From: Candidatus Vogelbacteria bacterium RIFOXYD1_FULL_46_19 | GTDB lineage: Bacteria > Patescibacteriota > Minisyncoccia > Phycocordibacterales > XYD1-FULL-46-19 | Length of the DNA stretch: 64,000 nucleotides | Direction of reading: 5' to 3' | NCBI GenBank assembly: GCA_001824825.1 | Contig: MHTK01000002.1 | Location: 6,020-70,019, forward strand | Shown here: one piece after another, positions 24,245 to 41,960 of the stretch | Layout of the letters: each line of letters starts with the position of its first letter | Numbering within the stretch: position 1 is the stretch's first letter | Notes under the pieces: model-generated | What the model was told of the DNA's origin: nothing | The model's database searches: none | What the model saw: only the letters and a program-made list of their open reading frames with translations | Made by a program: the position numbers and the translations under genes

Positions 24245-24300
24245 AATTGTCTCCTTTCTTGTTATTTTACCACCGTTAAAGAACTTTTGCCGGACTTAAA

Positions 24301-24486
24301 GAACCTTTTCGATTCCTGACCGGAAACAAATCAGTTTGTTTCTTATCGGGAATCTTTCCCTACGGGAACGGTATAGGTTTTCCATTTTTTCACCTAACGG
24401 CTCAAAAATATGGAAGAACCTTTTCGATTCCCGATGGGCACTGATTTACCCAAAAAGAAAAACCCCTAGATAGAGGTTTTTCTTTT
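24301..24486 (-). repeat. tRNA-His mirror element
   Basis: Inverted 19-nt copy of the tRNA 3' end at 24423-24441; TTCCC-GTA-GGGAA hairpin; direct GATTCCCGAT copy. Confidence 0.75.
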
Positions 24487-24562
24487 TGGGGTGCCCATCG
24501 GGAATCGAACCCGAATTAGAGGTTCCACAAACCTCTGTGTTAACCGTTACACCATGGGCACC
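24487..24562 (-). tRNA. tRNA-His(GTG)
   Basis: Cloverleaf; anticodon arm GAGGT-TTGTGGA-ACCTC; G-1 and CCA encoded. Confidence 0.97.
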
Positions 24563-24630
24563 ATGTTTAATAAATGGTATGGAGTATTGAATCAATATCC
24601 TATACTAAATACCCCCATACACCCCACCCC

Positions 24631-25188
24631 CTACTCATACTTCGGCGGCTCCTCTTTTATACCAGACAAGTGGTTGGTAAGTCTAGCCAAAGCGTACAAT
24701 AGGCTCGATAGTCGGTTTAAGTAAGCGCGGGTATTGTCATCGATTGATCTAACTCCTTCCTCTTGCACCGCCACTACTCGTCGTTCAGCCCGGCGAGCCA
24801 AGGTCCGCGCGTAATCGAAATGGGCCGCCAGTTCTGTCCCCCCGGAAATGAAAAAGGTGTTAATAGGTGGCATTAGTTTTTCAATTTCATTAATTAAGGT
24901 TTCAGTGGCCACCACTTTGTCCCGACTTATTTTTTTATCCGCTCCGGCTAGCTCGGCTTGTACAATAAACAAATTTTGCTGGGTCTGGTGGACGAGTTCA
25001 TGGACCGGAACATTGTCCGGCGGTACAGCGAAGCCCGCTCGAGCTTTTTCCTTACAAATTCCTAAAAATGAGTTAATCTCATCCAAAGTACCGAGAGCCT
25101 CCGCGATACCGGAACTTTTTGATACCCGCTGGTCACAACCAAAAGTCTTGGTTGTACCCCCATCGCCTTTACCAGTGAACAATGCCAT
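24631..25188 (-). CDS. PduO-type cob(I)alamin adenosyltransferase
   Basis: TGKGDGGTT, GTLDEINS, RTLARRAER, YLNRLSS. Confidence 0.92.
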   Translation of the reverse strand: MALFTGKGDGGTTKTFGCDQRVSKSSGIAEALGTLDEINSFLGICKEKARAGFAVPPDNVPVHELVHQTQQNLFIVQAELAGADKKISRDKVVATETLINEIEKLMPPINTFFISGGTELAAHFDYARTLARRAERRVVAVQEEGVRSIDDNTRAYLNRLSSLLYALARLTNHLSGIKEEPPKYE

Positions 25189-25279
25189 AAAATCTAGTTT
25201 AGCAAAAAATGGGTAAAAAGAAACCGCTTCCGAGAATGATTATTTCAAACTCGAAAGCGGTAATCTATTAGCACCGCCA

Positions 25280-25552
25280 CTAGACCCCCGGGAGCAGTAG
25301 CTGAAACCCCAGGAAAGACTCCAATTGGGGCCAGCTATGTTTCCGAATGGTGGGACGACGAGACCCAACTTTCGTGCCAGCCCCCTCGATCACCTGACCG
25401 AAGAGAAGGGGTCGGCGGTCGGCTGGAATTTTCCCGCCCCGACGGTAAACGACATTGTTCACCGCCTGTCGCTCGCTTGAAGCCCAGGTATTACCCTGGA
25501 ATTTTACGAGTTGGCCGTCTTTTTCATAGACGGCGTAAAGTTCCCTTTTCAC
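25280..25552 (-). CDS. hypothetical protein
   Basis: 90-aa ORF with AAGGAGG RBS, TATAAT upstream and a terminator downstream. Confidence 0.6.
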   Translation of the reverse strand: MKRELYAVYEKDGQLVKFQGNTWASSERQAVNNVVYRRGGKIPADRRPLLFGQVIEGAGTKVGSRRPTIRKHSWPQLESFLGFQLLLPGV

Positions 25553-25635
25553 AAAACCTCCTTGGCCACGGAAAGCCGTTTAGAAATCCAACGAATCTTC
25601 TCTTATTATACCATAGTTAATATATAAAGCAAGGA

Positions 25636-25794
25636 GCTCGGGAGAGGACTTTCCCCCAACGGGGGCTGGTACTTTTCGTTTCATTCGCTTAACAGCTCAT
25701 TCTTATCGAAAAGTCTTTCAAGTCCCCACGCGACTAAAGCAGTTTAGTCGCTTCCCGAGCACAAATAAAAGCACCCGGTAGGTGCTTTTATTTG
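25636..25794 (-). repeat. tRNA-Leu mirror element
   Basis: Split antisense tRNA 3' end; CTGC-loop hairpin; direct 16-nt copy at 25636-25651. Confidence 0.8.
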
Positions 25795-25876
25795 TGCTCG
25801 GGAGAGGACTTGAACCTCCACGCCTTTCGGCACTGGTACCTCATACCAGCGTGTATACCAATTTCACCACCCGAGC
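25795..25876 (-). tRNA. tRNA-Leu(GAG)
   Basis: Cloverleaf with long variable arm; CTGGT-ATGAGGT-ACCAG. Confidence 0.96.
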
Positions 25877-25906
25877 ATTTACACGACTTATTGTAAGGAA
25901 ATCAGA

Positions 25907-25943
25907 GCAAAAAACAAGCCGGCGGAGCCGGCTTGTTTTTTGT
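25907..25943 (-). terminator. intrinsic terminator after rplS
   Basis: AAAAAACAAGCCGGC-GGA-GCCGGCTTGTTTTTT. Confidence 0.85.
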
Positions 25944-25947
25944 TTGA

Positions 25948-26451
25948 TTATTTGGTTTCAGTTTCGTCCGTAGATTCAAGAGCCTCAGAAGAACTTGCTT
26001 CAGTTTGATCGGCAGTTACTACTTCCACTTCCGGCTCAATCGCCTCTTCTTCCATTGCCACCTCATCATCAGTGTCTCCCACGCTGGCCTTGGTACCCAC
26101 TACCTGCTTCATGCGACGGCGGATTTCCTTAGCCGCCTTGTCCCTAATATAGTAAAGCTTAGACCGGCGAACTTTAGACTGCTTCACCACCTCAATCTTA
26201 TCGATCATCGGCGAATACAGCGGAAAAATTTTTTCCATTCCTACCCCACTGGCCACTTTACGAACCGTAAAAGTCGAACCAGCTTCGTGGCCATGCTTAA
26301 CGGCAATTACCAACCCTTCAAAAATCTGAATACGAGTTTTGCCTTTTTCTTGAATCTTTTGGTGGACCCGCACCGTACTACCAGGAACCACTTTAACCTT
26401 GGCTCTTTTGTCAGTATCAATAGGTGAAATTTTAAATATAGGTGCTTGCAT
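25948..26451 (-). CDS. rplS: 50S ribosomal protein L19 with acidic C-terminal tail
   Basis: [27 protein letters not shown]. Confidence 0.98.
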
Positions 26452-26463
26452 AACAGCGAAAGT

Positions 26464-27201
26464 TTAGCACGAGCCCCGAAGATTATCAAGGGCGACTGTC
26501 ATATCCTGGGGTAAGTCCGCCTCCAGGGTCACCTTTTGGCCCCCTAAGAGCGCAATCTGAAGCTTAGCCGCGTGCAGAGCTTGTCGCTTTAACCCCAAGG
26601 CTTCGGTAGGCTTGTTCTGGGCGTATAAGTGGTCACCTACAATCGGGTGCTGTAGGGCCTTAAAATGGGCCCGAAGCTGGTGAGTGCGGCCAGTCTCGGG
26701 CTTGGCCTCCACCAAAGAGTAGCCGGAAAAAGTTTCTAGAACTTTAAAAATGGTGCGGGCCGAACGTAAATGGCTAGCGGCCTTAGGGCTTGCCACTCGC
26801 AGGCGCGGGTCGCGTTTACTCCGACCAATTGGCAGATCGATTACTTTTTCTTCTTCCGGGTTGGCAAAAACCCCGTGGACAATAGCCAGATAGGTTTTTT
26901 TCACCAACCGATTCTTAAACTGCTGTTTTAAGTATTGGAAACTGGGCTCATTTTTGGCAATCACCATTACCCCGCTGGTATCGCGGTCCAGGCGGTGAAC
27001 AATCCCCGGTCGGGGAATCTCCCGGCCGTCTGGCATTTTCGCCGGTTCACCCACCTCCAGCGTATCCGGAAACCGGCCAATAACCCAGTCAGCTAAGGTT
27101 AACTCCGGCCGGCGGCCATCAGAGTGCACCGCGAGACCAGCCGGCTTGTCGATAGCCACCGTATTATCGTCCTCAAAGATTATGGTCGGTTCCAGATTCA
27201 T
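26464..27201 (-). CDS. RluA-family pseudouridine synthase
   Basis: DKPAGL, HRLDRDTSG, TGRTHQLR, GDHLY; start set at MNLEP. Confidence 0.95.
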   Translation of the reverse strand: MNLEPTIIFEDDNTVAIDKPAGLAVHSDGRRPELTLADWVIGRFPDTLEVGEPAKMPDGREIPRPGIVHRLDRDTSGVMVIAKNEPSFQYLKQQFKNRLVKKTYLAIVHGVFANPEEEKVIDLPIGRSKRDPRLRVASPKAASHLRSARTIFKVLETFSGYSLVEAKPETGRTHQLRAHFKALQHPIVGDHLYAQNKPTEALGLKRQALHAAKLQIALLGGQKVTLEADLPQDMTVALDNLRGSC

Positions 27202-27248
27202 TCTTGATAAAGTAATACAAATACGGTATTGTAGCAATGTTACAAGCT

Positions 27249-27322
27249 GCGCGCTTAGCTCAGTTGGCTAGAGCATCTCGTTTACACCGAGAGGGTCGGG
27301 GGTTCGAGTCCCTCAGCGCGCA
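27249..27322 (+). tRNA. tRNA-Val(TAC)
   Basis: Cloverleaf; TCTCG-TTTACAC-CGAGA; no encoded CCA. Confidence 0.97.
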
Positions 27323-27550
27323 CAAGAAAAGGCTGCTTCGGCAGCTTTTTATTGTGCGCACTAGGAAGTGCACTGCTGCACTTCCGTGAGGGACTCGAAA
27401 GGAGTTTCGTTATCAAGCACCTGCCAAAGGTGCCTTGATCGAAACTCACCAGCCCCCGTAGGGGGAGAGTCCCTCGATTCCCAAAATCAAAAGCCCAAAG
27501 CTTTCGCTTCAGGACTTTTGATTTTACAGCAACGCTGAGAGACTCGAACC
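27323..27550 (+). repeat. tRNA-Val mirror element
   Basis: TGTGCGC + hairpin + GAGGGACTCGAA antisense; direct GAGTCCCTC at 27467-27475; second antisense copy at 27533-27550. Confidence 0.8.
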
Positions 27551-27627
27551 AAGTTTCCACGAAGCCTGATTTTTTACTCGAGTTATTTTGCTTGTCGCCT
27601 TCGCGATCCTTCTGGTGGACTGCATCA

Positions 27628-27659
27628 CGCCGTAGGTTCGCAGTAGCGAACCTACGGCG
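27628..27659. repeat. GTAG-type REP-like palindrome
   Basis: CGCCGTAGGTTCGC-AGTA-GCGAACCTACGGCG. Confidence 0.6.
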
Positions 27660-27825
27660 GAGGGGGCTAGATTCTAAACTTACAGTTTCAGTCCCCTTGT
27701 TGGATAAATTTTTCGTCCTTCGGACTTAAATTTATGCTCAACAAAGCTTCGAATCCCTCCTTCCGCTTTGCGAAACCGTCCTTCAGACGGCTTCCGCAAA
27801 AAAGCTTTCGGGTCTCGCTTTTTTG
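27657..27825 (-). repeat. tRNA-Ser mirror element
   Basis: Antisense-like copy at about 27748-27768; direct copy GCGGAGGGGGCTAGATTC at 27657. Confidence 0.7.
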
Positions 27826-27912
27826 CGGAGGGGGCGAGATTCGAACTCGCGATGCCCTTGCGGACATGCTGGTTTTCAAGACCAGTGCTTTAAACCACTC
27901 AGCCACCCCTCC
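27826..27912 (-). tRNA. tRNA-Ser(TGA)
   Basis: Cloverleaf with long variable arm; CTGGT-CTTGAAA-ACCAG. Confidence 0.97.
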
Positions 27913-27960
27913 AAACAACCAGCGATATTAACGCCGATTGAATTTAACTTATGCTTAAAC

Positions 27961-28284
27961 CTAAACCGAACTAGTAGTGTTGTGCTCGGCACTCACTGTC
28001 TCACTCGAAGAAACTTGAGCTGGCGTTGGTACTGACTGCTGCGTAGTCACTGGCCTGGCTGATGTTTTCCAACCACTAAAAAATTTGGCCACAAACACCA
28101 GGTAAATTATTTCTAAGATACCAGCGGTTTGTAAAATCAGCATGGCAATATACCAGCCCTTATCCCCGCGGCGCGCGGCTTGCCACAAAGCCAAACCCTT
28201 CCACACTGTGGACCACACAATTAAAACCAGTATCACCCCCCAAAAAAGCGAAGCAAAAACTAAAATGTCGTTGGGATTTTCCAT
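27961..28284 (-). CDS. small membrane protein (DUF5652-like)
   Basis: WKGLALWQAARRxxKGW...GILEIIYL. Confidence 0.8.
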   Translation of the reverse strand: MENPNDILVFASLFWGVILVLIVWSTVWKGLALWQAARRGDKGWYIAMLILQTAGILEIIYLVFVAKFFSGWKTSARPVTTQQSVPTPAQVSSSETVSAEHNTTSSV

Positions 28285-28380
28285 AACTAAATACTAGCAG
28301 TTTCCCTCAACAAATCAACAGCCTATTTTCAACTACCTCTCATACTAGATCAGCCAGAACTGATGCTATATACTGGTTTA

Positions 28381-28767
28381 ATGCGCTTACTTGGAATTGA
28401 TTATGGATCCAAAAAAATCGGCCTGGCCCTCTCCGACTCCACCGGACGCTTTGCCTCCCCGCTAGAGGTAATACCAAGCTCGCTGACCACCGCCGAAACT
28501 ATTGCCAAAATTTGTCAGCAAGAGGAAGTAACCAAAATCGTGATAGGCCACTCCTTAAATTATGCCAACGAGCCCAACTTGATTGTGGCTGATAGCGAGA
28601 AACTGGCCGAGAAACTACGAGTCTTAACCGGACTAGAAGTAATTTTTGAGCCAGAAGTCCTAACCACTCGCGAAGCCGAAAGAACAGTAGGAAAAGATGA
28701 GCTACTCGACGCTAGGGCGGCTGCTTTAATTTTAAAAAGTTATATTGATCGCCACCACCATGACTGA
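28381..28767 (+). CDS. ruvX: Holliday junction resolvase-like RuvX/YqgF
   Basis: LGIDYGSKKIGLALSD, ExLTT, DARAAALIL. Confidence 0.93.
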   Translation: MRLLGIDYGSKKIGLALSDSTGRFASPLEVIPSSLTTAETIAKICQQEEVTKIVIGHSLNYANEPNLIVADSEKLAEKLRVLTGLEVIFEPEVLTTREAERTVGKDELLDARAAALILKSYIDRHHHD

Positions 28768-29356
28768 AAAATTAAATATTTATAAAGAAAAAATGCGCAG
28801 CTGGGCCAACAACCGCGCCGACCATAAACAGACCAGCTGGTGGCTGGCCCTTCTCTCTTTTTCCGAAAGCTCTTTTTTTCTAGTACCGCCAGATGTTTTT
28901 TTGATCGGGATTTTAATGACTAGTCGGCGTTTTGCCTACTACGCTTTTATTACTACTATTTCTTCCGTTTTAGGCGGGGCCTTTGGTTACTTGATCGGGA
29001 TATTCTTTTTTGACACCATCGGCCAAACTTTAGTCGACCTTTATGGCCTACAAGATGAAATGGCTAAAGTCGGACAGCTCTTTAACAATAACGCCCTTGT
29101 CGCTATTTTCCTGTCAGCTTTTACACCCATTCCCTACAAAATATTCACTATCTCGGCCGGCTTTTTCCATATTAACTTTATAATTTTTATGCTGGCCTCC
29201 CTCCTGGGCCGCGGTTTACGATTTTTCCTTGAAGCTTACGCGATGAAACTATGGGGTAAAACTGTAGGTAAAATGATTTACCACTACTTTAACTTATTTA
29301 CTTTCATTGTCGGGGCTTTGGTGGTTTTGGGTATTTTCTACTTTTACTACTTTTAA
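28760..29356 (+). CDS. YqaA/DedA (VTT domain) membrane protein
   Basis: ESSFFLVPPD, FTPIPYKIFTI, GRGLRF. Confidence 0.9.
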   Translation: MTEKLNIYKEKMRSWANNRADHKQTSWWLALLSFSESSFFLVPPDVFLIGILMTSRRFAYYAFITTISSVLGGAFGYLIGIFFFDTIGQTLVDLYGLQDEMAKVGQLFNNNALVAIFLSAFTPIPYKIFTISAGFFHINFIIFMLASLLGRGLRFFLEAYAMKLWGKTVGKMIYHYFNLFTFIVGALVVLGIFYFYYF

Positions 29357-29436
29357 CACTCACCACTCTACTGGCTACCGTTTTTAAATTTAGATATTGC
29401 AGTTGGTCAGCAAGTAAGGTATTTTAAGCGTATTCT

Positions 29437-29508
29437 GCCCTTGTAGTTCAATGGATAGAACAGCGGACTTCTAAGCCGTTAATGGGGGTTCGATTCCCTC
29501 CAGGGGCA
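29437..29508 (+). tRNA. tRNA-Arg(TCT)
   Basis: Cloverleaf; anticodon loop CTTCTAA; GGTTCGATTCC T-arm. Confidence 0.95.
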
Positions 29509-29940
29509 CAAAATAAAATTTCACAGGATTATATTCCTGTGAAATTTTATTTTGTGCCCCTGAGCAAGCAAACTGCTTGGCTTGCGTGAGGGAATCGAAA
29601 GACTTTTCGTTACCAAGCACCTGATAAAGGTGACTTGGTCGAAAAGTACCTGCCCGCCATCGCTATGCTCAGGCATTGGCAGGCGGGCCAGCGAGTGTAG
29701 CTCGAGATTCCCTCTAGAACTTGGCGTCCGGGAATCGAAGAAGCTGAGCTTGTCGCAACGAGGCTGTAGGCCGAAGTGAGACGCGAAGCCTGTACTGTTC
29801 CTGCTGTGCCCGCTAGAGCTTTAGCGTAAGCGGGTAATGAAAGATTCCCGATGTGTGTAAAGGAACCGAAAGACTTTTCGCTGCCGAAACTTATCGCAGT
29901 GAGCGTAGCGAAACGAGATGTGAAGCCTGTACCGTTTAGG
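29509..29940 (+). repeat. tRNA-Arg(TCT) mirror element with tandem second and third partial units and nested REP-like palindromes
   Basis: TGTGCCCCTG + hairpin + GAGGGAATCGAA; direct GATTCCCTC at 29706; CGGGAATCGAA...GATTCCCG at 29729-29850. Confidence 0.8.
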
Positions 29941-30220
29941 TTTTACTCTCCTTGGCTCGGAAATGAGAAATATTACTTTCTCATTTCACTCGCTCTACAT
30001 CAGCAATAAAAACGAAAGCCGCTTAGGGGTTAACCAAAGCGGCTGAATCACATTTGATGATATATAAACCAAGGTCGGACCTTGGGAAAGAAATTGGGGG
30101 CATTTGCTCTACATCCGCCGGTCCATCTGTTGCCAGATTTCGCTAACGGCCAAGGTGGGTCTCTTCCTGTTTCTAACGAAACAATCCGTAGCCACACTCA
30201 AGCAAATTTACACTCGCACA

Positions 30221-31396
30221 CTAACCTCGAACTTGCATTCTTTGGAATTCTCGCTTGAAGCCGTCATCAGGGTCGTCCACCTTGGATGAAGGTAGCTGAA
30301 TTACGGCCAGTTTGCCATTTCCGTCGGCTTTTTCTTCAATCCTCCTCTGCTCGCGCCGACGACGATTCCTTTCAAACTGTTGAGGTGATGCCGATTGCCA
30401 CACTCCTCGATCATCTTGGTAAACGACTTCTCCGTTCATTAGGGGATATTGATTACCCTCAGAGTCAGTATATACATGATCCTGCACCACAGTTTCCAAC
30501 TCTGCCAATTTTGCCATTTGTTCCTCCACCTCGACTTTCTTTGCTTCTAGTTCTTGGTGGAGGCGCAACTTTTCAGTTGCTATACGAGATGTTTCTTCTC
30601 TCCCTTCTCGCAGTTTTGAGTTAACATCCCGTAAGCGCTGGTGGGCAAGTTCTGTCACATGAACTCGGCTGAGTTTGGGTCGACCTGAGGACTGGTGATT
30701 CTCTGCTCCAAAGGAAGATTGCGCCGGTTCACGGCGCCACCAGGCCACCACTAGTAACGAAAGTACCAACAACAGCCAAACTAGGCCAGTGGTAAGATTT
30801 TGTTCAAACCAGCTTACCAGGCCGATCTTTTTTTGAACCGAAGCCGATTGTAGTTGCAACAGACTCAAGGCCTGCTCCAGTTTTCCATTAACTACTACCA
30901 TCTCCTCCTGGAGCTGTTGTATGTCGGCCATCCCTTTCGCGACAGCCGGAGTGAGTTTTTGAACCACACTAGCCGAGACTTGTTCAACCGACTCGTTACC
31001 AAGCGTAGTGCTCGTGGCATTTTGGAGACTCTCGATCATTTTCACAATCCGATCGAGTTTCTCAGGAATAACAGGGATGGGAGAAATCTCAACCTCGGCG
31101 GTAGGCACCGTGGCAACTACAAAGTCAGCTGGTACTGGCCGCTCGTACGTTCCTGCCAACATTTTGTAGAATGCCTTTTCGGCGTTCTTCATGTGATGCA
31201 GTTTAGCAAAAGCAACCTGGTACTCTTCGGGGTCTGGCCAAACCTCGCGAACAAGGTCATTGGCCTGATAATCTTGGATTACCCAGGGGCCTTGGCCCTG
31301 GACCATTTCAAACTCTCCGAGGCCAAGATCAGCCTCGGCGGTTACTGCTGTCGCCATGACCAGCAGCACCATTAGCATCCATGCGACGCGCTTCAT
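30221..31396 (-). CDS. hypothetical secreted/membrane coiled-coil protein
   Basis: Signal peptide at MKRVAW with GGAGGTG RBS; internal TM; C-terminal coiled coil. Confidence 0.75.
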   Translation of the reverse strand: MKRVAWMLMVLLVMATAVTAEADLGLGEFEMVQGQGPWVIQDYQANDLVREVWPDPEEYQVAFAKLHHMKNAEKAFYKMLAGTYERPVPADFVVATVPTAEVEISPIPVIPEKLDRIVKMIESLQNATSTTLGNESVEQVSASVVQKLTPAVAKGMADIQQLQEEMVVVNGKLEQALSLLQLQSASVQKKIGLVSWFEQNLTTGLVWLLLVLSLLVVAWWRREPAQSSFGAENHQSSGRPKLSRVHVTELAHQRLRDVNSKLREGREETSRIATEKLRLHQELEAKKVEVEEQMAKLAELETVVQDHVYTDSEGNQYPLMNGEVVYQDDRGVWQSASPQQFERNRRRREQRRIEEKADGNGKLAVIQLPSSKVDDPDDGFKREFQRMQVRG

Positions 31397-31575
31397 AGTA
31401 AGACACCTCCTTTCTATATCTTCCACCCAAAATCGATAATGTCTAAAACTACAGGTTTTAGACATAAGCTTCACATCATCTATGTGTAAAAGAACTCCGC
31501 TGTTACCAACGATTTCTACTTTAGAAACTTACATAAAATTAGAAATATGTCAATACCACACCAGACTACCCGTTA

Positions 31576-33015: not shown

Positions 33016-33169
33016 TTATTTAGAAAAAACCACTATCATATTTCCCATCATTATAATGCAAGTGTTTAATTATCTCAAAGTCATCCATTACCCGTGACAA
33101 AAAATTTTGGGCTAAAAAATGAACACTTTTTTATTGCGGTTGACCAGGGGCGTTGCTACAATGTAAATA

Positions 33170-33664
33170 ATGGAAGAGCAAAATTCATCACCAGAAAAAA
33201 GCACGAGCGGCCCCGCTACCGAGTGGCTAGATTACGAATACATTCACTACGAAAAAAGTTCTAATTGGTTTTGGATTGTGGGCTTGGCCGGACTCCTAGG
33301 CATCATTCTCTCAATCGTATTTAAGAACTTCCTCCTGGCCATCATTTTATTGATCGGCACTTTAACAGTCATGCTTTACGGGGCGCGGGTCCCAGAGCTG
33401 GTTCACTTTAGTATTACCAATCGAGGCATAAAAGCTAAAGATGACCTCTATCCATTCAAAGCCCTAAAATCCTTTTCCATTAAAGATGACGATTATCCCT
33501 TTAAACTAGTTATCGAATCCGATCGCTTGTTTATGCCCCACATTATCATCCCTTTAGGTGATGCAGAACCAGAAGAAATTAGAGCAATTTTAGCCAAATT
33601 CCTTCCAGAAGAGCCTTATGAAGAGTCTTTAATTGATATTTTAGCCGACAGTCTTGGGTTTTAA
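33170..33664 (+). CDS. hypothetical membrane protein (DUF5673-like)
   Basis: EYxxxEKSxNW, two TM segments, GIxxxxxxYPF. Confidence 0.75.
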   Translation: MEEQNSSPEKSTSGPATEWLDYEYIHYEKSSNWFWIVGLAGLLGIILSIVFKNFLLAIILLIGTLTVMLYGARVPELVHFSITNRGIKAKDDLYPFKALKSFSIKDDDYPFKLVIESDRLFMPHIIIPLGDAEPEEIRAILAKFLPEEPYEESLIDILADSLGF

Positions 33665-33706
33665 CTTAAAATGTGCTAGTTTTTTAGGGCTGATTAAGAA
33701 AAACGA

Positions 33707-33728
33707 TTTGCTCTCATAGTTCAATGGA
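33707..33728 (+). repeat. 22-bp duplicate of the tRNA-Arg(GCG) 5' end
   Basis: TTTGCTCTCATAGTTCAATGGA, identical at 33707 and 33824. Confidence 0.9.
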
Positions 33729-33826
33729 CCCCAAGTCAGATAGCTCACCAGTTCGCAAACCTGACGGGGCGAGATGTAGGCCAACAAAAGTTTCGGTATA
33801 ATTAAGTATAGGGTGTTTAACATTTT

Positions 33827-33898
33827 GCTCTCATAGTTCAATGGATAGAACGCTAGCTTGCGGAGCTGGTAATCCAGGTTCGAATCCTGGTGAGAGCA
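33827..33898 (+). tRNA. tRNA-Arg(GCG)
   Basis: Cloverleaf; CTAGC-TTGCGGA-GCTGG. Confidence 0.95.
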
Positions 33899-34073
33899 CA
33901 CGAATGAAATGGGTGGATCTGACCAGGATTCGAACTCGAAAGGGGTCGGGAAAACTGTAGTTTTCCCGTGGAGGAAGGCAGAGCGAAGCTCGTCGGAAAA
34001 CCGTCCGCGTGTCGCTGAAGCTTTAGCGGAGGCACAGGGTTTCCGAAAGGTGAGATTCCTGATGAGAGCACCA
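33899..34073 (+). repeat. tRNA-Arg(GCG) mirror element
   Basis: Antisense ACCAGGATTCGAAC at 33922-33935; direct GATTCCTGATGAGAGCACCA at 34054-34073. Confidence 0.75.
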
Positions 34074-34186
34074 CTCTATTCGTACAGTACCTAGACTAAA
34101 ATTTGGCGACGGCCAAATTTTGAGTCGAAAGAAAATCCTGGCAAGCCCCCCCTACCAGTAGCTAATTACCAACCTAGTAGGTAGCA

Positions 34187-34220
34187 AACAAAAAACCTGT
34201 CAGTGACAGGTTTTTTGTTG
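34187..34220 (-). terminator. intrinsic terminator after rpsT
   Basis: AACAAAAAACCTGTCA-G-TGACAGGTTTTTTGTT. Confidence 0.85.
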
Positions 34221-34238
34221 GAGTTTAAGTTTTTTAAT

Positions 34239-34514
34239 TTAGACGATCGCTTTAGCTTTCTTTATCATTTTAGCCAAACGTGACTTTTTGCGAGCGGCAG
34301 TATTTTTTTTGATTACTCCCCGCTTAGCCGCTTTGTCGATAGCTTGATAGGCAGCCGAGAGGCCCGCTTCGGCGCCGGCAACATCCTTATTAATAGTTAG
34401 TACTTTTTTAACAGATTTTACTTGTTCACGCATCGCTTTTTTGCGAGCATCGTTAAAAACTCGCTTGCGAGCACCTTTGCGCAATTCCTTTTTGGCTGAA
34501 GTCGTGATAGGCAT
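34239..34514 (-). CDS. rpsT: 30S ribosomal protein S20
   Basis: SAKK, IDKAAKRGVIKKNTAARKKSRL; start set at MPITT. Confidence 0.97.
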   Translation of the reverse strand: MPITTSAKKELRKGARKRVFNDARKKAMREQVKSVKKVLTINKDVAGAEAGLSAAYQAIDKAAKRGVIKKNTAARKKSRLAKMIKKAKAIV

Positions 34515-34651
34515 AGACAGAACGATACCGCATCTTCCGTGAAAATGCAAGGGTGGCTTAGAACAATATTATTGATCTTTATTAAGACTAAAGGAGTATT
34601 TGGTGGTTTTACCGGTTTAGCGGTCGATTCGGAACATGCTATGATTACCTT

Positions 34652-35233
34652 ATGATTGGCTACTTAAAAGGAGATGTCACACATTTTGACGACAAAATTG
34701 CCATTATTTCGGTAAGCGGCGTGGGTTACTCCGTCTATTTACCGGTTCACGTCTTAGTCGTGCTCGCCCTCGGTCAGTCGCTAAGCCTGTGGACACATCT
34801 AGCGGTACGAGAAGATGCGTTGGAGCTTTTTGGATTTACTGATCGGGAGGAACTAACCTACTTTAAACTCTTGATCGGCATTTCTGGCATCGGCCCCAAA
34901 AGCGCCTTAGCTATTCTGTCTCTGGCTCCGCCGACCACCTTAAGACAAGCTATTTTAACCAATAATACAGAGTATCTGACCAAAGTGTCAGGTATTGGCC
35001 GCAAAAGTGCCGAAAAAATTATTATCGAACTACGCGATAAACTAGGGTCTTTAGCTGACGGTGAAATAGGCTTACTGGATGCTGACAGTGATGTAGCGGC
35101 CGCCCTTTTGTCGCTTGGCTATCAGCCGAAGGAAATTCGTGAGGCCCTCAAAAATATATCTAACGATATAACCTCAACTGATAAAAAAATAAAAGAGGCC
35201 TTACGCTGGCTAAGCAGTGGTCGCAAAAGTTAA
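34652..35233 (+). CDS. ruvA: Holliday junction branch migration protein RuvA
   Basis: MIGYLKG, VREDALELFGF, SGIGPKSA, GIGRKSAEKIIIEL. Confidence 0.98.
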   Translation: MIGYLKGDVTHFDDKIAIISVSGVGYSVYLPVHVLVVLALGQSLSLWTHLAVREDALELFGFTDREELTYFKLLIGISGIGPKSALAILSLAPPTTLRQAILTNNTEYLTKVSGIGRKSAEKIIIELRDKLGSLADGEIGLLDADSDVAAALLSLGYQPKEIREALKNISNDITSTDKKIKEALRWLSSGRKS

Positions 35234-35239
35234 TTCACT

Positions 35240-36271
35240 ATGGGTCGCTTAACTATTTCAAATATTACAAATAACGAGCCGTGGCCAAATAAAGCTGAGG
35301 CCGAGGCACACTTTACCCAATCTGAGCTTTTTGGTCAGTGGCAAATTGAGCGCGGTTTTAAAGTACGCCGCTTGGTCTTAAAAGACAACGACCGGCCCAT
35401 ATTATGGTGGCAAGCCCTTACTGCTCCCCTAATAAGACGTCACACTCAAATCTATATTCCACACGGACCGATTGTTTTAGACCCCTCCGATTTGAACCCA
35501 ACTGTAATAAAGTTATTTAAAGAGGAACTCTTTAAACTGGCCCGAGAAGATAAAGCGGTCTTTGTCCGTCTTGATCCCCAAATCAAAGACTGGACCAAGA
35601 GTGCCCTAAACAAAAATGGCTTTAAGACCGCTCCGGCCTTTGCTGCCCACTCAACTCTAACCCAGCCTCGCTACGAGTGGATTATGGATTTAATCGGCAG
35701 TGAAACTGATTGGTTTAACCGTATGTCTAAAGACACACGCTACTCTATTCGTACCGCCCAGAAACGCGGCACGGTAACGGAAATCATTAACGAAAACTTA
35801 ACCAGTGAACTCAATAACTTTTACCAACTTGTCCTTGAGACCAGCAAGCGAAACAACTTCCGCCTTCACCCTAAGTCTTATTATGAAAAAGTTTTGAGTG
35901 AAACCAGCCGGAATCAGAGCGGCTTTATCGTGAAAGCCTCTTTCAACGGCATTCCCCTAGTCATGAACTTGATCACCACCGGTAGTCCCACCGCCCTTCA
36001 CGTTTTTGGTGGCTCGACGACCGTCCATCGTGACCAGCTAGCTTCCTACTTAGCTCACTGGGCCGGCTTTATTGAAGCCAAGCGCCAAGGAGCCACGACT
36101 TATAGTTTCGGCGGGATTAGTTTCGGTGAAGATCAAAATCCTTCCTGGGTGGACTTAACCGCTTTTAAACAAAAGTTCCCCGGCCACATCAAAGATTATG
36201 GCCCCTTGTATGATCTCCCTATTTCCAGGCTATGGTATTATGCCTATGTCACCGCAAAAAAATTCCGCTAA
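35240..36271 (+). CDS. FemAB/FemX-family peptidoglycan bridge aminoacyltransferase
   Basis: FTQSxxxG, YIPHGP, TRYSIRxAxKRG, FKQKF. Confidence 0.88.
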   Translation: MGRLTISNITNNEPWPNKAEAEAHFTQSELFGQWQIERGFKVRRLVLKDNDRPILWWQALTAPLIRRHTQIYIPHGPIVLDPSDLNPTVIKLFKEELFKLAREDKAVFVRLDPQIKDWTKSALNKNGFKTAPAFAAHSTLTQPRYEWIMDLIGSETDWFNRMSKDTRYSIRTAQKRGTVTEIINENLTSELNNFYQLVLETSKRNNFRLHPKSYYEKVLSETSRNQSGFIVKASFNGIPLVMNLITTGSPTALHVFGGSTTVHRDQLASYLAHWAGFIEAKRQGATTYSFGGISFGEDQNPSWVDLTAFKQKFPGHIKDYGPLYDLPISRLWYYAYVTAKKFR

Positions 36272-36274
36272 ATT

Positions 36275-37564
36275 ATGGGCCAACTTAAACTCCAACTAAA
36301 AAAAATTACCCCGACTTGGATGCTGTCACTGTACCATTATAAGATGTCCCTGGTGGGCGCCCTGCGTTATGGTTTCCCGTCGCGAAACATAAAAGTAGTG
36401 GGCGTCACCGGCACCAAGGGTAAGTCTAGCACTGTCGAAATTTTAAACGCTATTTTAGAAGAGGCCGAGTTTACTACCGCCTTAGTGTCAACAGTCCGGT
36501 TTAAAGTGGGAAATGACTCCGAGCCCAATCGGCTTAAAATGACCACCCCAGGACGTTTCTTTCTGCAAAAGAAAATTCGAGAAGCAGTAGAAGCCGGTTG
36601 TGACTATATTATTATCGAGATGAGTTCGGAAGGGGTTAAACAGTGGCGCCACAAATTTATTACCCTTAACGCTCTCTTGGTTACCAACTTGTCGCCCGAG
36701 CATATTGAATCGCATGGATCCTACGCCAACTACCGCGAAGCTAAACTAAAAATAGCCAAAGCTTTGACTCGCTCGTCGAAACCCCACAAAGTTTTAGTCA
36801 CCAATGGTGACGATCCAGAACTTGAGGTTTTTCGCCAGCTTAAAAATGTGACTCAAGTCTCCACTCACCTAGTAGATGCTAGCCCTCACACTCTGCTAGC
36901 CGACGGACTTTTCTTTACATATAAAAATCAAAAAATCCAAACCAAACTGGTGGGCGAATTTAATTTGTATAATATCTTACTCGCTGTCGCTTATGCCGAA
37001 CATGAAAATGTTGATTCGGAAAAAATAAAAAAGGCTTTAGAAAAATTTACTGGTGTCCCCGGCCGGCTAGAGCTTGTCACCAGCTCCGATCCAACTTTGG
37101 CCCGACGGCAAAATTTTAAAGTAATTGTCGACTACGCCCACACCGCCGACTCCCTGAAAAAAGTTTACGAGATTTATAAAGACCATAAAATAATTGCGGT
37201 ATTGGGCGGCACCGGTGGGGGGCGAGACCGGGACCGCCGAACTATCATGGGCGGCCTGGCCAACAAGTATGCGAGCTTAGTGATTGTGACGGATGAAGAC
37301 CCTTACGACGAAGACCCACGCCAAATTGCCGAGGCAGTGGCCACCGGCGTCACCAGTACCCCTAAAAAGATCATTATGGACCGACGAGAAGCTATCCGAG
37401 TAGCACTTAAAAGTGCTACAGGCGACTCGGTGGTGATAATTACCGGCAAGGGCACCGACCCTTATATTATGAGAGCGGGTGGTACCAAAGAACTGTGGAG
37501 CGACGCCGAGGTGGCACGGGAGGAGCTGGAGATGGTACTAAAAGAACGAAGTGAACAGAAATAG
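36275..37564 (+). CDS. murE: MurE-like UDP-MurNAc-tripeptide synthetase
   Basis: GVTGTKGKSST, EMSS, TNLSPEHI, VDYAHT, ITGKG. Confidence 0.85.
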   Translation: MGQLKLQLKKITPTWMLSLYHYKMSLVGALRYGFPSRNIKVVGVTGTKGKSSTVEILNAILEEAEFTTALVSTVRFKVGNDSEPNRLKMTTPGRFFLQKKIREAVEAGCDYIIIEMSSEGVKQWRHKFITLNALLVTNLSPEHIESHGSYANYREAKLKIAKALTRSSKPHKVLVTNGDDPELEVFRQLKNVTQVSTHLVDASPHTLLADGLFFTYKNQKIQTKLVGEFNLYNILLAVAYAEHENVDSEKIKKALEKFTGVPGRLELVTSSDPTLARRQNFKVIVDYAHTADSLKKVYEIYKDHKIIAVLGGTGGGRDRDRRTIMGGLANKYASLVIVTDEDPYDEDPRQIAEAVATGVTSTPKKIIMDRREAIRVALKSATGDSVVIITGKGTDPYIMRAGGTKELWSDAEVAREELEMVLKERSEQK

Positions 37565-37571
37565 CTTAGAT

Positions 37572-37726
37572 ACCCCGCCTCGCTTTTTACCTTTTCAATT
37601 TAAAGTAAGAGGTAACCCAGTGTGGTGTGGTAGAATTTTAGCCAACACGCTTCGCGCGTAACGTAAGGAATGGCCTATACGGCCCCGCGTGTTGAAAAAA
37701 TAATTAACAGTAAAAGCGAGGCGGGG
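37572..37726. repeat. 155-bp element bounded by inverted repeats
   Basis: CCCCGCCTCGCTTTT...AAAAGCGAGGCGGGG; internal CAACACGC/GCGTGTTG stem. Confidence 0.6.
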
Positions 37727-37766
37727 CGATGATTTTATAAAGCTCGCCTTCCCCGCTAAAAATTCA

Positions 37767-38055
37767 CCCTGTTTAGTAAACTTTAAATTTTTTCAAAAAT
37801 ATTATGTACTTTACATACGTTCTCCAATCTCAACTGGATAAAAAATTTTACACAGGTTTTACAAAAAATTTAAAGTTAAGATTTGACGATCACTGTGATG
37901 GTTTAGTAAATTCTACTAGCAGTAGACGACCCTTAAAACTAATTTATTATGAGGCTTGTTTGAATCAACATGACGCTACCTATAGAGAAAAATATTTAAA
38001 AACCACATATGGAAAACGTTTTATTAGAAATAGAGTCAAATCTTACTTAACAGGG
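37767..38055 (+). mobile_element. GIY-YIG mini-element with terminal inverted repeats
   Basis: CCCTGTTTAGTAA...TTACTTAACAGGG (12/13 match) enclosing the nuclease ORF. Confidence 0.55.
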
Positions 38056-38058
38056 TAA
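37804..38058 (+). CDS. small GIY-YIG nuclease
   Basis: YVLQS...YTGFTKNLKLRFxxH...LIYYEA...REKYLK. Confidence 0.92.
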   Translation: MYFTYVLQSQLDKKFYTGFTKNLKLRFDDHCDGLVNSTSSRRPLKLIYYEACLNQHDATYREKYLKTTYGKRFIRNRVKSYLTG

Positions 38059-38940
38059 ATGCCCGAACTACCCGAAGTTGAAACGGTGGCCCGTGACCTC
38101 AACCGTGTTTTAAAAAACCACGTTATTAAAAAGGTTGTGGTCCGTGTGCCCAAAATGATTTTACCGCTCTCGGCGGAAGATTTTGGTAGTGGCTTAAAAA
38201 CTTGGTCCATCGAGAAAGTCTCCCGCCGAGCCAAAATTATCGTAATAAATTTATCTAAACCCAAAGCTAAAGCCAAGAAATTTTTACTGATTCACCTCAA
38301 AATGACCGGCCAACTTATTTGGATGCCTAAAATCGGCCAAGCAGTAATCGGCGGCCACCCCCAGCCCGGCGGTGGTCATAATTTGCCCCACAAACACACC
38401 CACGCCGAATTCCACTTCCAAGACGGGTCAGTTTTGTATTTCAACGATATGCGTAAATTTGGCTGGCTTAAATTGGTGACTGAATCAGAAAAAGAAATCA
38501 TTCTTAGCCCGCACGGCGTGGAGCCACTGGCTAAAGATTTTAGTTTGACCATTTTTACCAACCTAATCACCAAGTACCCCAACCGCACTCTTAAGCACAC
38601 CCTGCTAGACCAAAAGCTGATCGCCGGCTTAGGCAACATTTATGTGGATGAAGCCTGCTTTAAGACCGGTGTTCTACCCACGCGTCCGGTTCATACTTTA
38701 TCAAGATCAGATTTAACAAAACTTCACCAAGAGATTGTGGCTGTTTTAAAACTCTCCATCAAAAAGAAAGGGACTTCGGCCCGCAATTATGTCCGAGCCG
38801 ACGGCACCAAAGGTGGCTTTGTCCCCTACTTAAATGTGTACGGCCGCGCGGGCTTAGCCTGCAAACAATGTGGCAACCTAATTTCGAAAACTAAACATGC
38901 CGGCCGGGGCACTCATTTTTGCAGTAAATGTCAAAAATGA
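38059..38940 (+). CDS. mutM: formamidopyrimidine-DNA glycosylase
   Basis: MPELPEVET, HLKMTG, DMRKFG, GLGNIY, C-terminal zinc finger. Confidence 0.98.
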   Translation: MPELPEVETVARDLNRVLKNHVIKKVVVRVPKMILPLSAEDFGSGLKTWSIEKVSRRAKIIVINLSKPKAKAKKFLLIHLKMTGQLIWMPKIGQAVIGGHPQPGGGHNLPHKHTHAEFHFQDGSVLYFNDMRKFGWLKLVTESEKEIILSPHGVEPLAKDFSLTIFTNLITKYPNRTLKHTLLDQKLIAGLGNIYVDEACFKTGVLPTRPVHTLSRSDLTKLHQEIVAVLKLSIKKKGTSARNYVRADGTKGGFVPYLNVYGRAGLACKQCGNLISKTKHAGRGTHFCSKCQK

Positions 38941-39012
38941 TATAGACCAAAGGGCCCTCATTTTTTCGTCACAGTTCGAGATAGAAAACATTAATTTACT
39001 ATGCTTTAATAG

Positions 39013-39138
39013 TAAAAGCCGACACAAATTCACCTTTAGTTTAACCAACTGAAGTTACCCTAAGCCTAGAACCGCCAACTAGGGACGGGCCCTGATACGG
39101 GGCAGGAAGGAGGGTGTTGAATTTAGTGTCGGCTTTTT
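39013..39138 (+). ncRNA. candidate structured small RNA
   Basis: 19-bp closing stem plus three internal hairpins; -10-like TATGCT upstream; T tail. Confidence 0.35.
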
Positions 39139-39253
39139 ATCTACCCATAATTTCAAAAAACCTAACCACACTAAGTGACTAGTTGTTATAGAAAGTGTCA
39201 GAAATAAAAAAATGAAACCCCCGATTCGTCAAAACGAATCGGGGGCTAATTCT

Positions 39254-39865
39254 CTACTTGCGAAAAGCGAGAAACCGGCAATTGCCACCCCAGCCATCTT
39301 CGAACCAACCCAAGCTCAAGACGCGCCGCGAGTCATTCCCGTCGAGGAAAGGCACACGACGGTCACCACACACCTCCGCACTAGAGCCAAGAGCGACAAC
39401 CAGAAACTCTTGTTGAACCTCGGGGCAAGTCGCCCCAAAAGCAAGCAATTCCGCGAGTGTGCCGGGGCGCAAACCACGTTTCTCGAGCTCGGCCAGCACC
39501 ACCTCGGACGACCTATCATGACCGAAGTGGACCAGCTCAGGCTCAAGCTCCACTTGCCCTTCCCCCTCCACTTCGAAAAGATCCGGGGTAATGTTGAGGT
39601 CGACCAAGTCGTAACAACCAGCGATCACCATCTGCTCGAGAGTCATAGTATAATCCACGACAATCTTGCAAATTTTCGCCACCAGACCAAGTAGCTGACG
39701 AAACGCAAAGCGATCCACCCTCTTCAACTTTCCCACCACGGCCGCCTCGTAGAGATCAGCTTGAAGTCCAGTTTGAACAAGGTCGTCACAAGCCTCTTCG
39801 GTGAGGCCTTTATGATCAGCCAAATTTATGAGATGTTTTGCATTGCCCAAAATCACTATACTCAT
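39254..39865 (-). CDS. hypothetical protein
   Basis: 203-aa ORF with GGGAG RBS and a terminator at about 39217-39245. Confidence 0.75.
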   Translation of the reverse strand: MSIVILGNAKHLINLADHKGLTEEACDDLVQTGLQADLYEAAVVGKLKRVDRFAFRQLLGLVAKICKIVVDYTMTLEQMVIAGCYDLVDLNITPDLFEVEGEGQVELEPELVHFGHDRSSEVVLAELEKRGLRPGTLAELLAFGATCPEVQQEFLVVALGSSAEVCGDRRVPFLDGNDSRRVLSLGWFEDGWGGNCRFLAFRK

Positions 39866-40049
39866 AGAATTATCTCCCAGTGTTACTCTATTTAGTAATA
39901 GTAGTTTAAGTTATCCTTGGTGGAAAAACCGCCAGAGAACTTATCTGCATAAGATAATACACTTATTTTAATACCTTATCAAGATACACCCAGCTCAGAA
40001 TATCCCTATTCATAGCCGCATTCTTAGCAATTTTTGAGTCTACTTAAGT

Positions 40050-40355
40050 CTATTTCACCTTTCGCTCCAACATTATCACCCTCTTTTCCAGACGGGCAAA
40101 TTCTTGTCGATCCACTTTTTGTTTCGTTTCATATTTAATATCTGCCAGGTCTAACAGTATCTGCCCCATCCGTTCGGTATGACTATCTAATTTTTTCTCG
40201 ACAACACTAAATTTAGTCTCCACCTTTTGGTTTAATCCTAACAGCCCCTCACCGAATATTTTGAACTGCGAACGCAGATCTTCCAACACGACCGTATATT
40301 GGTCTTTCTTAGGTGCTCCTTTATTGGCCTTGGATTCTGGAGTTTTCTTCTTCAT
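40050..40355 (-). CDS. hypothetical coiled-coil protein
   Basis: Heptad pattern; KVDRQEFARLEKRV. Confidence 0.75.
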   Translation of the reverse strand: MKKKTPESKANKGAPKKDQYTVVLEDLRSQFKIFGEGLLGLNQKVETKFSVVEKKLDSHTERMGQILLDLADIKYETKQKVDRQEFARLEKRVIMLERKVK

Positions 40356-40376
40356 AAATTGATTATACTCCCAGAC

Positions 40377-40844
40377 TTAAATCAGGCCAAACAAGGCTAC
40401 CCCGGCCGCCACTGAAACATTGAGCGACTCTTTCTTCCCCCTCATGGGGATTTCGGTAATAAGATCGCATTTATTTAAAACTGACGTGGGTAAACCCTTA
40501 GTTTCTTCACCTAAGACTAAAGCCCAACTACCCTTTAGCTTTAGTTTCCGGTAATCGACTGAGTGGTCCGTTTGCTCTAAAGCCACCGTTTTAAGGCCGG
40601 CTTTTTTAAGTTTGACCAGAATGGAGGCAATGGTTTTATGATAAGTCCAGGAAACAGATTTTTCCGCCCCTAAGGCTGTTTTAGCAATTCGCGAATTCAC
40701 CCGACCAAACCGGTCGACAGGGCATGGGGTGACACCGATAAGAAATATTTTTACTATCCCCACCGCGTCCGCCGTCCGAAAAATCGCCCCCACATTGTAG
40801 GCTGAACGGATGTTATAAAGAATTAAAAAAACTTTTCGTTTCAT
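40377..40844 (-). CDS. TrmH/SpoU-family RNA methyltransferase
   Basis: NVGAIFRTADA, LGEETKGL, IPMRGKKESLNVSVA. Confidence 0.95.
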   Translation of the reverse strand: MKRKVFLILYNIRSAYNVGAIFRTADAVGIVKIFLIGVTPCPVDRFGRVNSRIAKTALGAEKSVSWTYHKTIASILVKLKKAGLKTVALEQTDHSVDYRKLKLKGSWALVLGEETKGLPTSVLNKCDLITEIPMRGKKESLNVSVAAGVALFGLI

Positions 40845-40884
40845 CTTTTGAAACTATCAGGAATTAAACTAGAAGTAAACTTGA

Positions 40885-41106
40885 TGCCCCGTGCAAGATT
40901 CTGTCCCTACCTGCCCGCCAGCGCCTAAGCCAGCAGGGCGACTCGCCTGCCATGCAAGGTACGAACGGGTACCCCGCCCTGTGCACAGGGCGGGGTCTTT
41001 CGAATCCTGACGCAAGCCAAGTCCTAAAGCCGTCCGGACTCGGAGTAGGCCAGTTGACTTGCTCACGGGGCACAAAATAAAAACGCCTAGCGGCGTCTTC
41101 ATTTTG
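40885..41106 (-). repeat. tRNA-Lys mirror element
   Basis: Split antisense copy; CTG|C hairpin with a 29-nt insert; direct copy at 40885-40901. Confidence 0.8.
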
Positions 41107-41179
41107 TGCCCCGTGCAGGATTCGAACCTGCGACCGTTCGCTTAAAAGGCGACTGCTCTACCAACTGAGCTAACGGGGC
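41107..41179 (-). tRNA. tRNA-Lys(TTT)
   Basis: Cloverleaf; anticodon loop CTTTTAA. Confidence 0.96.
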
Positions 41180-41226
41180 AAAAGAGTTTAAACGCAAATT
41201 ATTCTACCTTAAAAATTTCACCTAGT

Positions 41227-41943: not shown

Positions 41944-41960
41944 AATTTATTAGACCCAAG

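Follow-up and report, generated by a model that had tools for sequence, protein, structure and literature searches.

Short units mirroring the ends of neighbouring tRNA genes form an order-wide family of candidate mobile DNAs in Candidatus Vogelbacteria and its relatives

In a 64,000-nucleotide stretch of contig MHTK01000002.1 of Candidatus Vogelbacteria bacterium RIFOXYD1_FULL_46_19 (positions 6,020 to 70,019; hereafter the window), all seven transfer RNA (tRNA) genes are followed by a short unit built around copies of their own 3' end. Each unit carries a reversed copy of the T-arm that ends in GAA and then a forward copy that starts at tRNA position 57, both on the tRNA-sense strand (arm 10-12/12; forward copy 11-16/17), as a first-pass annotation made from the letters alone had described. 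On balance, we lean towards reading the units as non-autonomous single-strand mobile DNAs that bear a guide arm, insert at the T-loop and duplicate the gene end in the process. Positions are given in window numbering unless a contig is named (G000 is the window's own genome and C2-C8 are its contigs), and bases within genes and copies are numbered by tRNA position.

The genome (708 kb, 8 contigs) encodes 39 tRNA genes and one transfer-messenger RNA (tmRNA). Its size and gene content, and the presence of a core motif in named Patescibacteria records, point to a bacterium of the candidate phyla radiation. Reversed arms were scored as the 12-nt complement of positions 54-65 at most 250 nt downstream (threshold at least 11/12), and forward copies as the 17 nt of positions 57-73 (threshold at least 14/17). 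Reversed arms were detected downstream of 21/39 tRNA genes and upstream of 0/39; forward copies were detected downstream of 15/39 and upstream of 1/39. By eye, units were recognized behind about 26/39 tRNA genes and the tmRNA. The claim that such an element stands behind every tRNA gene therefore does not hold, as about 13/39 tRNA genes of this genome have no unit. At gathering score, Rfam recognized only the seven tRNAs in the window, and at E<=10 it returned only weak generic hairpin matches beyond tRNAs in window 24000-42000. Contigs from other samples cross the His and Arg-GCG units with identical sequence; these two units are therefore not assembly artefacts. Duplication of a pseudo-tRNA was considered and rejected, since the arm is an exact complement of the 3' strand and not a copy of the 5' strand (the Val arm lacks the gene's G-U wobble).

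Many units contain a hairpin, H1, with a CTGC loop. Of 18 CTGC-loop hairpins in the genome, 14 lay at most 500 nt behind a tRNA, always in tRNA sense, with 1 more behind the tmRNA, 1 in an orphan Asn-type unit and 2 elsewhere. As a control, seven other loops gave 0-3 hairpins each. Two H1 copies were off pattern: one (G000:C8 near 21277) lies upstream of tRNA-Gln(TTG) and is preceded by a duplicated 5' end of this tRNA, and the other (G000:C4 near 26213) has a B-type core but no tRNA nearby.

A parsed set of 101 units was obtained from 311 tRNA genes in fetched loci (an earlier pass gave 73/91 candidates). The match rates of this set are biased because both passes demanded a partial tRNA match, and the blind sets described below are the real test. 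Behind the gene end (57-74) came a terminator-like hairpin and the reversed acceptor, then, in some units, H1; positions 64 to 54 followed in reverse, ending in GAA, and the core and forward copy completed the unit. At least seven core families were distinguished, with lengths of 46-132 nt, mostly 65-75 or 86-89 nt. All core types were predicted to fold as one three-way junction, in which P1 (arm plus forward copy, 8 bp) is followed by a short GAA linker, P2, a further linker and P3. What had been called a constant scaffold is thus constant in its three-way architecture, with target-specific arms, but is not one sequence. The forward copy begins 0-1 nt after P3. The right junction is fixed at core/position 57, and in 90/101 units the gene, the arm and the forward copy are concordant at this position; the left junction is variable, lying often just after C74 and sometimes after the terminator or inside H1. 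A near-complete acceptor copy was found in 44/101 units. A promoter/terminator scan gave 9 found versus 8.6 expected.

The H1 and P2 stems quoted in the first-pass annotation are present in the sequence, and the covariation proposed for them is borne out where it was counted. Changes on both sides were found at 9/9 pairs of H1 (40 hairpins, preselected for pairing) and at 11/13 pairs of P1 and P3 (28 units), with 0/500 shuffles as high, both counts being inflated by kinship. P2 was left out of the count because its registers differ between core types. Two descriptions required correction. H1 had been given as a 25-nt unit; at Lys the hairpin itself is found, but its loop carries an insert of about 26 nt. 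The His element, described as the same parts rearranged, is really two units in a row: the first lacks H1, and the second has H1 but is cut off. Pairing of the junction with the P3 loop as a pseudoknot was rejected by eye, as changes in the loop are not accompanied by covariation. Two further features of forward copies were observed. A recurring hairpin of about 12 nt is inserted right after position 58 at five loci (L144, L168, L256, L257 and L265), which hints at a second cut site at 58/59. Behind tRNA-Pro(TGG) (C2:109667), tRNA-Gln(TTG) (C8:21151) and tRNA-Ile(GAT) (C6:313636) of G000, the forward duplication is longer and extends from the anticodon arm through to the 3' end.

A covariance model built from H1 and the reversed arm was used to search the order, the phylum and metagenomes. 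The model matched 89/111 genomes of the order, with 1-24 copies each, and, at a stricter cut-off, 2/140 sampled genomes of the phylum outside the order. Exact core patterns were too narrow as queries (5 loci; 5/301 genomes). In blind set 1, the 30 best model matches (3/30 from training genomes), 28/30 lay 10-207 nt behind a recognized tRNA or tmRNA; the other two lay at an unrecognized tmRNA-like end beside smpB and at a contig edge. The arms of this set fitted their neighbour at 147/168 variable positions, compared with 88±6 after shuffling, with four rows scored one base out of register. In blind set 2, comprising 31 metagenome matches minus 6 duplicates, 21/25 lay behind a recognized gene and 100/105 positions fitted, compared with 47±5.5 after shuffling; by eye, the other 4/25 lay behind unrecognized tRNA-like ends or at contig edges. 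In the parsed set, 66/101 arms were perfect for the neighbouring tRNA, and a tRNA-Ala with an unusual T-loop base had the mirrored change in its arm, a single case. The reported match between arm and neighbouring tRNA therefore extends broadly to other genomes by the blind sets, with exceptions inside the window. The Ser(TGA) arm fits Ser(GGA) better, and behind Arg(TCT) the arm of unit 1 matches (12/12) but unit 2 is His-type in arm and forward copy. The downstream-only matched arms and the blind sets also support the earlier judgement that the elements are neither ordinary terminators nor simple attachment-site scars. Collectively, these units form a family that is real, abundant and spread across the order.

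Layout, junction, duplication, core exchange and differences in occupancy can be read directly from the genomes. At the Val(TAC) locus of 17 relatives, 7 loci were filled with several different cores, 8 were empty and 2 were partial or cut. The main core types each occurred at a wide range of tRNA species (B, 43 units on 22; A, 20 on 14; E, 16 on 10; E2, 9 on 8), and 10 pairs of cores at least 88% alike were found at different tRNA ends. In two species of one genus, the Leu(GAG) units have the left part in common and different cores. Foreign arms, perfect for another tRNA end and accompanied by the neighbour's own forward copy, were found in 6/101 units, two of which may be single-base deletions. 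Within the window, the core of the Ser(TGA) unit is 95% like one behind Ser(GGA), while its forward copy (27657-27674, 16/17) is that of its own tRNA, and a hairpin and arm closely similar to those of the second Val unit remnant lie behind tRNA-Ile(TAT) on contig C5. Tandem stacks were found at Asn, Gln, Lys, Arg, Ile and tmRNA, and some distal copies continue through the terminator into H1.

Distal copies also differed from the genes in front of them. C75 was encoded in 13/44 distal copies versus 11/84 genes in front of a unit (p=0.03) and 48/200 unit-free genes; in a first, smaller set the figures were 12/30 for distal copies and 5/63 for the gene in front. Given this retention of C75, the distal copy is read as the displaced old gene end. 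The distal flank is identical to the gene's flank in just 6/44. In the Arg(GCG) unit an encoded CCA follows the forward copy and is absent from the gene itself. Reverse transcription of mature tRNA was rejected as the source of the copies, as encoded CCA is not enriched in distal copies (10/44, versus 34/200 unit-free genes). Among tRNA genes in the fetched loci, C74 was encoded in 230/234 and full CCA in 34/234. Swapped cores, empty loci, stacks, donor arms and distal retention of the gene end are likely marks of insertion with target duplication. Of the two possibilities raised at first pass, the non-autonomous mobile element thus gains support from empty loci, cores common to several tRNA species, tandem arrays and foreign arms.

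The fold was compared between strands. The tRNA-sense strand folds better in 88/101 units with RNA parameters and in 93/101 with DNA parameters. GNA triloops, a stable DNA hairpin motif, make up 46/90 of the core triloops of the tRNA-sense strand, compared with a single case on the opposite strand. GNRA or UUCG loops account for 0/78 core tetraloops, compared with 38/534 in shuffles. This loop evidence is suggestive of a DNA-type fold.

To account for these findings, we hypothesized that the units move as single strands. The folded strand would be the non-template strand, exposed during tRNA transcription, and its reversed arm would find the target by pairing with the T-loop and T-stem of the tRNA gene. 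A putative trans-acting nuclease or recombinase, with small GIY-YIG, HUH and host Xer proteins as candidates, would nick the target at 56/57, and the unit's 3' end would be joined to position 57; the old gene end would therefore become the distal copy. Repair synthesis from position 56 would restore a complete gene end ahead of the unit. The arm would be re-matched by fold-back copying, either during insertion or afterwards, and the unit would thereby be retargeted to the tRNA that now hosts it. Beyond the observed duplications, the model would add an exposed strand, a guiding role for the arm, a nick and a sequence of events. A further-reaching version seems possible to us, but tentative. It would make the process a self-retargeting, DNA-guided insertion, in which a single-stranded DNA of about 150 nt carries a guide and rewrites it from each target, one enzyme, of the host or acting in trans, serves any tRNA-like end, and the tRNA-linked repeats (TLRs) of Escherichia coli are a branch of one overlooked class of mobile elements.

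Several observations weigh against a mobile, single-stranded DNA. Of the 46 GNA loops, 37 come from one homologous hairpin in the P3 region, where some copies have GTT or GTG. This shared origin, together with the preference of both parameter sets for the same strand, means that DNA versus RNA is not settled by the fold. Forward-copy run length is scattered (2-56 nt, with peaks at 12 and 18). The C75 signal is modest and weaker in the larger set. No excision or empty-site joint was found among the joints listed from four metagenome DNA runs, which were of low depth and whose contigs drop rare forms. The Arg-TCT unit persists in two relatives (G003 and G022) with compensatory changes, which fits host selection equally. 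The His-type unit behind Arg(TCT) has a foreign forward copy, and foreign arms could stem from gene conversion between existing units.

The search for a helper enzyme adds to these points. No recurring recombinase or nuclease was found among the 91 flanking open reading frames scanned (of 101 listed), which yielded one each of a GIY-YIG, tyrosine recombinase, rve integrase, LAGLIDADG and weak transposase-type helix-turn-helix match. No gene-bearing large version of the unit was seen. Unit number was weakly correlated with gene counts for GIY-YIG (rho 0.37) and Y1 (rho 0.26), a relation that general mobilome load could explain, and one genome with 15 units (G029) has no Y1 gene and one GIY-YIG match. 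A Y1 gene was present in 33/43 unit-rich versus 10/22 unit-free genomes. G000 has one Xer-like recombinase, one Y1 gene, one reverse transcriptase and three GIY-YIG matches, none of them inside a unit, and its sole tyrosine recombinase and Y1 gene are unlinked to units.

Host-kept RNA elements are an alternative that we consider unlikely. Here, read-through would fold the arm on the pre-tRNA or free a small RNA whose 3' end resembles that of a tRNA, as demonstrated for E. coli RrB, and would modulate how transcripts are terminated, processed at the 3' end or degraded. For the Val locus, the arm of the read-through transcript is predicted to pair with acceptor and T-arm and to unfold both (z -10), which keeps an RNA reading alive, and it is joined by the strong covariation and by the persistence of units between species. 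According to the accessible part of PMC8144298, the TLRs that follow 5S in E. coli give rise to processed transcripts that bind CsrA/Hfq. However, the terminator-like hairpin precedes the arm, about one-third of the tRNA genes here have no unit, and 22/111 genomes have no H1 match. Stacking and core swapping would be left unexplained. The specific suggestion of the first-pass annotation, an RNA that controls or catalyses pre-tRNA 3' processing, fares poorly: cores lack RNA-type GNRA or UUCG tetraloops, Rfam gave no ribozyme or RtT match in the window and nothing beyond generic hairpins, the hammerhead core is absent from the invariant columns, and many tRNA genes go without a unit.

Rather less probable are minimal integrative elements, in which a single-stranded DNA circle with paired copies as attachment site is inserted at the T-loop by a tyrosine recombinase (host Xer or phage integrase), or domesticated integrase decoys. 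T-loops are established integrase sites, and folded single-strand attachment sites are used by tyrosine recombinases in CTX phage at dif and in integron attC. Such integration leaves the layout seen here, namely gene end, reversed copy, body and displaced gene end, with the distal copy keeping the old gene end; moreover, an Xer-like gene is found in 108/111 genomes, and a 3.7-kb run of cassette-like genes ends in the orphan Asn-type unit. Yet the Xer-like gene is equally frequent where units are absent, no phage source was matched in IMG/VR (two patterns) or in a phage collection, and simple integration leaves the donor's tRNA end on one side, whereas foreign-arm units have the recipient's end on both.

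A passive by-product, in which template switching at terminator palindromes reaches the tRNA end, mini-repeats pile up, and slippage plus gene conversion spread them, is improbable: terminator stems do often run perfectly into the acceptor, cores do hold nested mini-repeats and some forward copies extend into the terminator, but the junction is fixed at position 57, H1 is fixed in position and orientation and nearly absent away from tRNA ends, core lengths are narrow, and one three-way architecture spans the core families.

The seven tRNA genes of the window and their units are listed in Table 1.

Table 1. tRNA genes and downstream units of the window
Feature	Position	Strand	Description
tRNA-His(GTG), target gene	24487..24561	-	tRNA prediction and Rfam
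His unit 1	24337..24486	-	terminator-like hairpin, unbroken reversed acceptor and T-arm (T-arm part 24423-24433), without H1
His unit 1 core, E-type	P3 GTA hairpin 24356-24368	-	forward copy from position 57 starts 24354
His unit 2, cut off	24280..24344	-	H1-like hairpin 24320-24344, reversed T-arm 24308-24318, E-type core start
tRNA-Leu(GAG), target gene	25794..25876	-	tRNA prediction and Rfam
Leu unit	25634..25793	-	terminator, reversed acceptor, H1 25728-25752, reversed T-arm 25717-25727
Leu unit core, A-type	P3 25653-25665	-	forward copy 25634-25651 (16/17)
tRNA-Val(TAC), target gene	27249..27323	+	tRNA prediction and Rfam
Val unit	27324..27475	+	terminator 27324-27352, reversed acceptor, H1 27363-27387, reversed T-arm 27388-27399 (12/12)
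Val unit core, A-type	27400-27466, P3 27453-27465	+	forward copy 27467-27475
Val unit 2 remnant	27484..27548	+	hairpin and reversed T-arm 27538-27548
tRNA-Ser(TGA), target gene	27825..27912	-	tRNA prediction and Rfam
Ser unit	27657..27824	-	hairpins, Ser(GGA)-type reversed arm 27748-27758, D-type core
tRNA-Arg(TCT), target gene	29437..29509	+	tRNA prediction and Rfam
Arg(TCT) unit 1	29510..29714	+	terminator, reversed acceptor, H1 29563-29587, reversed T-arm 29588-29599 (12/12)
Arg(TCT) unit 1 core, A-type with nested palindromic mini-repeat	forward copy 29706-29714	+	
Arg(TCT) unit 2 and further core remnant	29728..29940	+	arm 29728-29739 and forward copy near 29843, both His-type; E-type core
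tRNA-Arg(GCG), target gene	33827..33899	+	tRNA prediction and Rfam
Arg(GCG) unit	33900..34071	+	reversed T-arm 33923-33934 (12/12), G-type core, forward copy 34054-34071
tRNA-Lys(TTT), target gene	41106..41179	-	tRNA prediction and Rfam
Lys unit	40884..41105	-	terminator, reversed acceptor, H1 with loop insert, reversed T-arm 40999-41009
Lys unit core, F-type, nested mini-repeat in P3	forward copy 40884-40901 (16/17)	-	

Other features were noted alongside the units. Palindromic mini-repeats that are common genome-wide sit inside unit cores and duplicated tRNA D-loops (window about 29650-29690, 29800-29835 and 40905-40960; G000:C4 near 6400). On the + strand of the window, at 37590-37760 and 37804-38058, a long irregular hairpin, 6S RNA-like by eye and without an Rfam match in the window, lies directly before a stand-alone gene for an 84-aa GIY-YIG nuclease. 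Elsewhere in G000, five same-strand genes (C6:177000-181000) lie between the tRNA-Asn unit array and the orphan Asn-type unit 3.7 kb away; each seemingly has its own promoter and terminator, like a row of cassettes, and the sequence after both distal copies is duplicated. A small GIY-YIG gene lies just upstream of tRNA-Thr(TGT) (C6:243816-244260; L004), flanked by direct repeats that consist of the promoter region and the tRNA 5' end up to the D-loop. The same layout was seen at tRNA-Gln in another locus (L173:940-1345) and suggests a distinct element that targets the 5' ends of tRNAs; among the top GIY-YIG loci, 8/30 have a tRNA within 1.5 kb. The reverse transcriptase of G000 belongs to a locus resembling a diversity-generating retroelement (C6:198000-200500; L003), with a small accessory open reading frame and a template repeat from which the variable repeat departs mostly at adenines.

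This lineage contains hundreds of copies, and its empty loci, swapped cores and foreign arms provide a testable model of TLR-like units as guide-bearing single-stranded mobile DNAs, and mobility would also explain the tRNA-linked repeats of E. coli. If the model is true, an enzyme joins DNA at a site set by a rewritable DNA guide of 11-20 nt and leaves the target gene intact; this would bear on transposon biology, on tRNA loci as integration hotspots and, possibly, on a programmable insertion tool. If the units instead act as RNA, minimal genomes would have an additional, new level of control over their tRNAs.

The first-pass annotation knew of no described family with this layout. That was too strong, as the E. 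coli TLRs (RtT) share it loosely, but there is indeed no sequence or model match to RtT. As described in the accessible part of PMC8144298, TLRs (the tyrT/tyrV 178-bp repeats; RtT RNA, Rfam RF00391) are defined by an 18-19-bp copy of the upstream gene's end, occur as 22 copies at ten loci with 1-5 per locus, and have had no known function since 1978; that part mentions neither a reversed arm nor mobility. In ten E. coli tRNA genes, we found TLR forward copies of 18-19/20 and GNA-loop hairpins before the forward copy. The reversed arm reached 10/12 in three tyrV repeats and 9/12 at tyrT; Lys and Arg TLRs have shorter arms by eye and scored at most 9 in the 12-nt test. The RtT model matches the E. 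coli Tyr and Lys TLRs, but not Arg. Like TLRs, the units lie directly downstream of tRNA or tmRNA (28/30 and 21/25 blind matches), in tandem copies per locus, with a forward copy, a reversed arm and GNA-loop hairpins. Unlike TLRs, they give no RF00391 match in the window at gathering score or E<=10, their forward copies start at 57 rather than 58/59, their arm is longer, spans T-loop and acceptor and is split by H1, and they stand on more than half of the tRNA genes with several interchangeable cores. By sequence, the units thus fall outside the TLRs, although they work as a more elaborate version of them. In their accessible parts, one mobilome preprint reports raised coverage at the tyrT-rttR region and ascribes RNA-gene signals to heteroduplexes rather than circles, and another preprint describes a tandem GA motif in RtT.

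Other known systems share single traits. tRNA-primed retroelements differ in that no CCA enrichment was found here, a reverse transcriptase is present in 1/5 unit-rich relatives and that of G000 lies in the retroelement-like locus. Casposons leave a long target duplication at tRNA ends, and the IS110 bridge RNA is a constant scaffold with target-specific arms. In contrast, the five unit-rich genomes contain no Cas1 (0/5) or IS110 (0/5) gene, and the units have no terminal inverted repeats and hold two target copies that pair with each other. tRNA-targeting integrative elements, CTX attP and attC resemble the units in the displaced tRNA 3' end on the far side, the T-loop junction and a fold-back site with a bulged helix. 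The units, however, are 100-200 nt long with no integrase between the copies (cores 46-132 nt), have the recipient's end on both sides in foreign-arm units, and have arms re-matched to more than 20 tRNA species.

IS200/IS605 elements with their gene-less derivatives, and REP/REPIN with RAYT, are likewise small single-strand hairpin elements moved in trans. IS200/IS605 elements make no target duplication and use a 4-5-nt guide, whereas the units have the recipient's gene end on both sides and no constant terminal tetranucleotide, and Y1 genes are missing in 10/43 unit-rich genomes. For IS608, the accessible part of PMC5934647 describes target choice by DNA-DNA pairing with the element's guide and a transposase that stays joined to the flank 3' of the cut; the engineered guide extension described there pairs upstream of the cut, whereas the units here would pair mostly downstream. 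Beyond the TLR paper, no description of the reversed arm, of H1 or of a family in the candidate phyla radiation was found in the literature searched, a search outside which most subscription papers, including Rudd 1999, lie. The accessible text of two 2026 genome-language-model preprints names no such family, although their supplements may list such clusters. Collectively, the family represents a variant of a kind of element already known but unexplained. The evidence that its units move and match their targets is good, and the enzyme involved is putative.

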